Counted from the first letter of the whole stretch, positions 46,335 to 46,568 are shown. The stretch: DNA of 48,580 nucleotides, filler included, from Dimargaris cristalligena (GCA_003614675.1; 2 parts of 2 records of this genome joined end to end with filler, not necessarily neighbours in it); one strand, 5' to 3'. Numbers and translations are program-made. The notes: generated from the letters alone by a model not told the origin.

Positions 46335-46568
46335 CTAAGAATCTTTAGTGGTAAATATACTTTTAACTGCATCAATTGGGACCTTGGCCACCTTTAATAA
46401 GCCTTGAAAAAACCCACGGCGGTGTAGGGAGTTCGGCAATTGACCAGTAGAAGGTCCGATCCCCACCGTATCACCCATGCCCGGCAGGGGGGATGCGACA
46501 GTAGAACTGGCCAGGGCCAGCAGACCCAAAATAGCGGCGGGGTTGGTAAAGATGGTGGCAAACTTCAT
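46335..46568 (-). CDS. 77-aa secreted prepropeptide: signal peptide, pro-region, HRR dibasic site, 26-aa amphipathic peptide
   Basis: MKFATIFTNPAAILGLLALASSTVA-SPLPGMGDTVGIGPSTGQLPNSLHRR-GFFQGLLKVAKVPIDAVKSIFTTKDS. ATG at 46568; canonical upstream TATAAATA. Confidence 0.78.
   Translation of the reverse strand: MKFATIFTNPAAILGLLALASSTVASPLPGMGDTVGIGPSTGQLPNSLHRRGFFQGLLKVAKVPIDAVKSIFTTKDS

Follow-up and report, generated by a model that had tools for sequence, protein, structure and literature searches.

The stretch of DNA analysed here (the window) comprises 48,580 nucleotides (nt), filler included, from Dimargaris cristalligena (GCA_003614675.1), and consists of two parts of two records of this genome joined end to end with filler. 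Near its end, at 46335–46568 on the minus strand, lies a small open reading frame (ORF) that may encode the precursor of a secreted peptide. An earlier sequence-only reading of this DNA had proposed a 77-residue precursor at this place from which the protease Kex2 would release a pardaxin- or melittin-like lytic peptide. The ORF listing under the standard code, together with a strand reading of 45900–47100, confirms the frame, which runs from ATG to TAG through 77 codons. It is situated in a gap of 3759 nt extending from a C2H2 zinc-finger gene, which ends at 44821, to the end of the window, and the claim that it is unannotated agrees with the absence of its exact sequence from a collection of 15 billion proteins.

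The predicted product can be divided into three parts. Residues 1–25, MKFATIFTNPAAILGLLALASSTVA (46568–46494), resemble a signal peptide, possessing Lys2, a hydrophobic core and the potential cleavage sites ALA/S and TVA/S (the slash marks the cut). These are followed by a putative pro-region, residues 26–51, SPLPGMGDTVGIGPSTGQLPNSLHRR (46493–46416), in which 14 of the 26 residues are Gly, Pro, Ser or Thr, and which ends in L-H-R-R (46416–46427), a candidate site for kexin (Kex2) with the cut before Gly52. The remainder, residues 52–77, GFFQGLLKVAKVPIDAVKSIFTTKDS, is the predicted mature 26-mer; the coordinates assigned to it earlier, 46415–46338, are correct. Its Pro13 (residue 64 of the precursor; codon at 46377–46379) may introduce a kink into a helix. 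Approximately 220 nt past the stop codon a motif match to AATAAA (46113–46108) represents a possible polyadenylation signal.

Two routes to a longer gene were considered and rejected. Upstream, the frame remains open for 210 nt before the ATG, but this extension lacks an ATG and its 70 codons display non-coding usage (−0.10), from which it follows that the ATG is the start. Downstream, the sole GTATAT donor near the 3′-end, by which the stop codon could be spliced out, enters low-complexity AT-rich sequence as judged by eye, and no convincing second exon was found by eye beyond it. The opposite strand carries an ORF of 81 amino acid residues (46477–46722, plus strand), with non-coding codon usage (−0.27), across the leader and the first part of the candidate gene.

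Signal peptides were recognized using a crude, home-made rule: a net positive start, an uncharged 10-residue core with a Kyte–Doolittle mean of at least 1.8, and small residues at −3/−1 within positions 15–30. This rule is passed by 50 of 4192 shuffled ORFs (1.2%). The window contains 131 ATG-initiated ORFs of at least 50 residues, 60 of which reach 77 residues, and four of the 131 pass, including the 77-codon ORF, the core of which is the strongest of the four (best 10-residue mean 2.65). The N-terminus has the n/h/c layout, two small-residue −3/−1 sites and then a polar region rich in Pro and Gly. The resemblance to a signal peptide claimed in the earlier reading agrees with this rule, but the cleavage point at TVA/SP (after residue 25) is not unique, ALA/SS after residue 20 (46509) being also allowed by the −3/−1 rule. 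The hydrophobic residues 3–20 could alternatively be an anchor, in which case a real gene would specify a micropeptide anchored in a membrane or placed in an organelle; another version without a secreted product is a short regulatory ORF within a non-coding transcript. The n/h/c layout with its two cleavage sites and polar Pro/Gly-rich follow-on argues against these possibilities, as does the lack of a second hydrophobic segment in the 77-residue sequence, and we regard them as very improbable. A second ORF in the window, of 80 residues (31839–32081, plus strand; MKVYTIVVSIGALAYC/SSWAT...), passes the same rule and has a polar tail with two Cys near its end; it may represent another unannotated small secreted protein, or chance.

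As set out in a passage of PMC8528282, Kex2 requires Arg at P1; at P2 it favours Lys but tolerates Arg, and its preference at P4 is for Leu or some other aliphatic residue. The Leu (P4), Arg (P2) and Arg (P1) of the ORF fit this extended motif, in support of the dibasic site predicted earlier, and the RR is the single dibasic site in the 77-residue sequence. The same source describes, in the part concerned, effectors with a Kex2-processed pro-domain (K2PP) as possessing a signal peptide and a disordered pro-domain followed by KR, RR or LxxR. The ORF is similar in having a signal-peptide-like start, a pro-region predicted to be disordered, an RR end that also agrees with LxxR, and a mature part thereafter; as read from the sequence, L-H-R-R after a stretch rich in Gly, Pro, Ser and Thr, in the proportion given above for SPLPGMGDTVGIGPSTGQLPNSLHRR, fits the K2PP pattern. 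It differs in that the members described there are folded proteins of plant-pathogenic Dikarya, whereas here the product would be a 26-residue Cys-free peptide of a zoopagomycote mycoparasite, and in that its motif is placed two thirds of the way into the precursor. Given a real gene with a secreted product, we consider from these sequence features that cleavage by kexin is fairly likely.

The 26-mer contains four Lys and two Asp, resulting in a side-chain net charge of +2, and Pro is its residue 13, both as originally described. On a helical wheel (100° per residue) F2, F3, L6, L7, V9, A10, P13, I14, A16, V17, I20 and F21 fall within an arc of 60–240°, while Q4, K8, K11, D15, K18, S19 and T22 occupy the opposite side; V12 is the sole hydrophobic residue on the polar face. 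The hydrophobic moment of residues 1–22 is 0.49 on the Eisenberg scale and 0.52 on that of Fauchère and Pliska, with its maximum at 100°, and is matched by 0.1–0.2% of shuffles of the same composition (Eisenberg: 0.1% of 50,000). For the full 26-mer the moment is 0.38 (Eisenberg), which 1.5–2% of shuffles equal. This calculation, which the sequence-only reading had called for, reveals that the amphipathic helical pattern is real. Among the C-terminal 26-mers of the ATG-initiated ORFs of at least 50 residues (130 rather than 131 here and in the joint test below, since 88 N were removed) that of the 77-codon ORF ranks fifth by moment, the four that outrank it being Arg-rich and of lower mean hydrophobicity. 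The best 18-mer moment of the tail, 0.537, is reached by 0.9% of the 18-mers in the long ORFs of the window. In length, positive charge and high moment the 26-mer agrees with the linear cationic amphipathic α-helical membrane-active peptides of 12–50 residues, a class defined by function and not by homology.

AlphaFold, applied to the single sequence, returned a model with a pLDDT of 57.5 and helices at residues 10–20 and 48–73. The second helix (pLDDT 55–69) runs unbroken through Pro13, and the pro-region is devoid of secondary structure, residues 25–43 having a pLDDT below 50. A control fold of the antisense 81-residue ORF gave three helices and a pLDDT of 64.2, above that of the 77-codon ORF. 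The helix was therefore dropped as evidence, the model being silent on whether the gene is real or how its product folds; single-sequence models of short ORFs appear, on this comparison, to be uninformative.

The most serious alternative is that the frame is a chance ORF, the untranslated accident of a GC-richer patch in a 3.7-kb intergenic stretch, with coincidental features that were picked post hoc. Dinucleotide shuffles of the 3759-nt gap contain on average 0.88 ORFs of at least 77 residues, and 60% of them have one or more. The individual features are likewise within the reach of chance: the signal-peptide rule is met by four of the 131 ORFs, tails equally amphipathic are found in 3.8% of the window ORFs, and the window contains other gaps of 4–7 kb without a large ORF. 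What argues against this explanation is the combination. To pass a joint test, an ORF of at least 50 residues had to possess a signal-peptide-like start, a dibasic Lys-Arg or Arg-Arg trailed by 18 or more residues, and a positively charged tail whose 18-mer moment was 0.50 or higher; the shuffles were mononucleotide, in 2-kb blocks, and the resulting rates are rough. In a first run of 2620 shuffled windows, 2898 of 271,881 ORFs of at least 50 residues were signal-peptide-like, 860 of these 2898 also had the dibasic site with sufficient residues after it, and 102 of the 860 (12%) had a cationic amphipathic tail as well, that is, 0.039 per window. The 12% again shows that once a signal peptide and a dibasic site are present, a passing tail is not rare in shuffled sequence. 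A second run of 3039 shuffled windows gave 127 instances (0.042 per window) by the loose rules, 38 (0.0125) when an aliphatic P4 was added, 18 (0.0059) with the target's own values, and four (0.0013) with both the aliphatic P4 and the target's own values. In the real window the 77-codon ORF alone passes (one of 130). The whole architecture is uncommon by chance, with 0.001–0.04 instances expected per 48.5-kb window.

Codon usage was trained on 5371 codons of seven large window ORFs against out-of-frame triplets. The in-frame log-likelihood of the 77-codon ORF is +0.18 bits per codon, whereas the other five frames score from −0.10 to −0.40; that the reading frame alone is positive does not favour an accidental ORF. 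For reference, 66 chunks of real genes, each of 77 codons, average 0.28 (standard deviation 0.18). Where no large ORF is present the window has 37 ORFs of at least 50 residues, of which the 77-codon ORF is the fourth by this score, the top-ranked one probably being the first exon of an importin gene. The GC content also peaks locally, at 0.52–0.60 in the ORF vs 0.26–0.46 in flanking 100-nt bins.

The region upstream of the ORF possesses several features suggestive of a promoter and leader. A candidate TATA box, TATAAATA, is found by motif match at 46918–46911 on the minus strand, 350 nt 5′ of the ATG, and is followed by (CA)10 (46835–46816) and (CT)12 (46815–46792), which together form a C-rich, pyrimidine-rich tract between TATAAATA and the ORF. 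The best pyrimidine fraction over 40 nt is 0.90 here vs 0.62–0.78 upstream of 13 other candidate starts. The earlier reading had credited the ORF with its own TATA box; TATAAATA is indeed present, but it is weak evidence, the window having 163 copies of TATAWA on its two strands together, or roughly one every 600 nt on each. TATAAATA itself has 10 copies on both strands, so that a copy on the correct strand no more than 400 nt upstream has a probability of about 0.04. A passage of PMC9703631 describes a working promoter layout of an ascomycete mould in which a pyrimidine-rich tract separates the TATA box from the start site, a comparison that may not hold for zygomycetes. The candidate leader (46569–46950) is G-poor and free of ATG. 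Whichever frame is considered, the first ATG met on the 5′ side lies at −383, which is the longest such distance of 14 starts compared, the other 13 having one at −16 to −207. The G content of the leader is 9.5–12% (9.5% over 357 nt), and a lack of ATG arises by chance in 5.4% of mononucleotide shuffles of the 357 nt and in 12.9% for the proximal 222 nt. Picking an ORF out of chance sequence does not explain why 383 nt ahead of it should be poor in G and lack ATG, or why TATAAATA and a CT tract should lie there. Taken together, the codon, leader and promoter signs lend the gene weak, independent support.

Homologues were sought widely. Of three candidates from a word-indexed search of 5.8 billion entries, none reached E ≤ 10; phmmer, run on 1.84 billion representatives, gave no matches; and no Pfam family matched the product of the ORF at E ≤ 1. 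The 77-mer and the 26-mer each drew a single chance match from the PDB by phmmer (E 0.88 and 1.4), and the ESM Atlas held no usable match to the whole ORF or to residues 52–77. A metagenome scan with the 77-residue query yielded 600 pattern matches, none of which was confirmed by tblastn, and a scan with the adjoining AMP-binding ORF for syntenic contigs yielded 80 loci, all at 47–52% identity, with no close relative. Within the window, the best non-self tblastn match of a possible paralogue had an E of 0.75. No tRNA and no Rfam match at E ≤ 0.1 is found in 44800–48580, which contains weak repeats only. The 1115-residue importin ORF of the window, which over 92% of its length is 100% identical to a protein listed for D. 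cristalligena by NCBI and UniRef, is 71% identical to its counterpart in Tieghemiomyces parasiticus, 67% in Dimargaris xerosporica and 63% in Dispira simplex; with relatives only 63–71% identical in a conserved importin, and small orphan ORFs easily left unannotated, the silence of homologues weighs little either way. A passage of PMC9391592 gives 26% of 47,494 zygomycete small secreted proteins as singletons. The main text of the genome paper (PMC6784888) contains no occurrence of “transcriptom,” “RNA-seq” or “secret”; if no RNA data were used there, it is plausible that a 77-codon orphan was missed. A protein language model assigned the product a “recognition” value of 2411, where 2300 is reached by 91 of 100 proteins of known families and nine of 100 shuffled ones, a value which, by the tool's own warning, is no proof that a gene is real.

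Twenty-three sequencing runs share words with the window, most of which are carried by five DNA runs of one organism; the small shares of runs X7–X23 probably reflect microsatellites. Four runs (X3, X5, X6 and the RNA run X23) were compared over 45600–47400. Run X3 spans the ORF without a difference, and X6 consists of identical low-depth fragments. Run X5, produced by a different study of this organism, matches the window exactly over 46308–46779, which includes the ORF and a piece of its leader, and differs at five positions in 46886–47400; in 45600–46261 one base is substituted, four bases are deleted and 49 are skipped. These differences (the skip, the deletion and six substitutions in all) are sited at 45824–45874, 46063, 46080 and 46935–47231, all outside 46308–46779. 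For the identical 472-nt contig piece the probability of no difference is 0.035–0.08.

A number of observations weigh against a functional secreted peptide at this locus. The length of the ORF is by itself at chance level, the thresholds of the joint test were set after the target had been seen, and chance look-alikes would be expected to number from one or so up to a few tens across a genome tens of megabases in size, the loose rules predicting of the order of 20. No search found a homologue although the proteomes of three relatives in the Dimargaritales were included. Strain identity was rejected as a sign of constraint, the probability of no difference in the 234 nt of the ORF being 0.19–0.29 at the rate of the flanks, which is not significant. 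The single RNA run, X23, with 5% of the words, has no contig over 45600–47400 and permits no inference on expression. The codon signal is uneven and comes almost entirely from the signal-peptide part, which scores +0.50, the pro-region having −0.04 and the mature part a near-zero +0.09, and the GC content at codon positions 1, 2 and 3 is 0.52, 0.49 and 0.52, with no rise at the third position (GC3), which in six of the seven training ORFs is 0.63–0.75. The spacing of 350 nt between TATAAATA and the ATG is long, and a charge of just +2 is less than is typical of cationic antimicrobial peptides. An ORF without homologue, RNA or annotation, with GC3 not raised and an AlphaFold model poorer than that of a non-coding antisense ORF, could thus be accidental, and we think this quite possible, if somewhat short of an even chance. 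Set against the rarity of the joint architecture, the positive frame and the leader, we lean slightly towards a real, unannotated, lineage-restricted gene for a small secreted pre-pro-peptide.

Comparison with known systems reveals likenesses of design. The only fungal lytic precedent found is candidalysin, and, like it, the 26-mer as predicted would be a ribosomal, kexin-released, linear amphipathic α-helical peptide of roughly 30 residues from a secreted precursor. A passage of PMC5784256 describes its precursor Ece1 as having 271 residues and seven KR sites, candidalysin being cut at two of these and then trimmed by Kex1; candidalysins are reported, in the part of PMC8787473 concerned, from C. 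albicans, C. dubliniensis as well as C. tropicalis. In general terms the precedent invoked earlier stands, but the ORF, with one RR site and one C-terminal core ending in KDS, which would need no Kex1 step, is unlike the seven-KR Ece1, and homology to Ece1 was found neither in the word search at E ≤ 10 nor by phmmer against the 1.84 billion representatives. Kex2-processed repeat proteins (KEPs), including precursors of the α-factor type, have repeated cores flanked by Kex2 sites according to PMC6339444 and PMC7329392. They share with the predicted product a secreted precursor cut by Kex2 to short peptides; membership was rejected, the 77-residue sequence being without repeats and having a single dibasic site. 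Proline-kinked helix-hinge-helix permeabilising peptides are well documented in animals, where a passage of PMC3720801 names pardaxin, melittin, cecropins and gaegurins. Like them, the 26-mer is about 26 residues long, has a proline in the middle of its predicted amphipathic helix and a polar tail at the C-terminus, and would be freed from a prepro-precursor. What it shares with pardaxin and melittin is design and not homology, as the Pfam and PDB results given above indicate, and the Pro13 earlier ascribed to pardaxin finds no match in that same passage, which names Pro7. Membership in the pardaxin, melittin, candidalysin and KEP families was rejected on tests of homology or architecture. With its net charge of +2 the 26-mer also differs from the animal peptides. 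The charge of melittin is about +5 to +6. Peptaibols of Trichoderma are helical, membrane-permeabilising, non-ribosomal and rich in Aib, and are used by a mycoparasite against host fungi; they would be the functional analogue, and the 26-mer would by contrast be gene-encoded. In the open-access literature, by title or abstract, no described ribosomal lytic peptide from Zoopagomycota was found. The ORF would be an orphan precursor among kexin-processed secreted precursors, its product belonging to the amphipathic-helix class.

If the gene is real, the following course of events can be envisaged. Transcription would start 3′ both of TATAAATA and of the repeat tract (CA)n(CT)n, and the first AUG would open the 77-codon frame. 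Residues 1–20 or 1–25 would act as a signal peptide for the endoplasmic reticulum and be removed, after which kexin in the Golgi would cut after Arg51, at the L-H-R-R end of the presumably disordered Gly/Pro/Ser-rich pro-region, releasing the C-terminal 26-mer with no need for a carboxypeptidase step. The peptide would be unstructured in water and on a lipid surface become an amphipathic helix over residues 2–22, with a hydrophobic face of about 180°, a kink at Pro13, a K11–D15 salt-bridge pair and a polar TTKDS tail; this helix might then insert into and perturb the membranes of mucoralean hosts or competitors. Provided that kexin cleavage occurs, a membrane-active role seems reasonably probable.

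An alternative that shares the claim of a real gene is a secreted small protein or peptide that is not a lytic toxin. It could be a surface-active coat peptide of aerial structures, a host-directed effector, a signal, or an uncleaved Cys-free protein of 52–57 residues. Amphipathic helices are general interface binders, and the net charge here is just +2. The Kex2-derived repellent peptides of Ustilago, which are small and amphipathic, reportedly affect aerial hyphae and surface hydrophobicity, and we count them on the side of a non-lytic role. In the passage of PMC8528282 on the subject, about 30% of 120 fungal effectors have a candidate Kex2-cleaved pro-domain and are not lytic, and zygomycete secretomes, as described in part of PMC9391592, contain many small secreted orphans to which no role is assigned. 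On the other side, nothing in the sequence separates a non-lytic from a lytic product, and length, a hydrophobic arc of about 180° and a proline kink are typical of permeabilising helix-hinge-helix peptides (PMC3720801, in the passage cited above). We hold a non-lytic product to be possible, though on the doubtful side; it takes a little more than half of the weight that we give to a real secreted gene. The full lytic-peptide interpretation of the sequence-only reading is, overall, unlikely, and the same low expectation attaches to the more specific proposal that an obligate haustorial mycoparasite makes a kexin-released helix-kink-helix peptide which permeabilises the membranes of mucoralean hosts or competitors. 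That interpretation is a fair hypothesis, partly supported by the sequence, which neither proves nor excludes it. For now this is a reasonable candidate locus and not a discovery.

The remainder of the window is eukaryotic in character, its large ORFs possessing DEAH helicase, BK-type potassium channel, importin, AMP-binding and C2H2 zinc-finger domains. A family-B polymerase domain is present in an ORF of 372 residues (18199–19317, plus strand), which aligns with about residues 850–1220 of DNA polymerase zeta (REV3) of yeast (E 1e-104); it is an ordinary nuclear gene, not viral or mobile, and the ORFs beside it (12424–16837 and 19764–20384) may be further exons. The AMP-binding ORFs (40469–42400, plus strand) have at least 567 confirmed metagenome relatives at 47–52% identity, with no close fungal one among the matches listed; the family is widespread. 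Just 3′ of the importin gene are two runs of 44 N (24262–24305 and 24318–24361), which are assembly gaps or masked sequence. The other stretches of 4–7 kb without an ORF of at least 150 residues are 20400–24900 and 33400–40400, and may contain intron-rich or unannotated genes; some of the small ORFs within them have positive codon scores, for example those at 35601–35843 and 39965–40225. A short dispersed repeat of about 45–58 nt lies at 45941–45998. It is matched, with 7–11 differences, by many contigs of X3, X5 and X6, which continue into unrelated sequence, and the summed word depth rises about five-fold there; no tRNA or Rfam match was found for it.

The organism is indeed a mycoparasite, as the proposed use against host fungi presupposes: the part of PMC6784888 concerned describes D. 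cristalligena as an obligate mycoparasite that was sequenced by single-cell methods. In its passages on mycoparasitism the same paper reports no shared mycoparasitism genes and discusses only expansions of proteases, chitinases and non-ribosomal peptide synthetases. The means by which haustorial mycoparasites among the early-diverging fungi attack or tap their hosts are almost unknown. If the lytic reading were true, the 26-mer would represent a new class of weapon for these mycoparasites and might serve as an antifungal lead. The design seen in candidalysin and animal venoms would then have been invented independently, from a single-core prepropeptide, and the 26-mer would be the first ribosomal lytic peptide known in fungi outside Candida, a ribosomal counterpart of the Trichoderma peptaibols. 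The gene would, in addition, exemplify those that annotation without RNA data misses.

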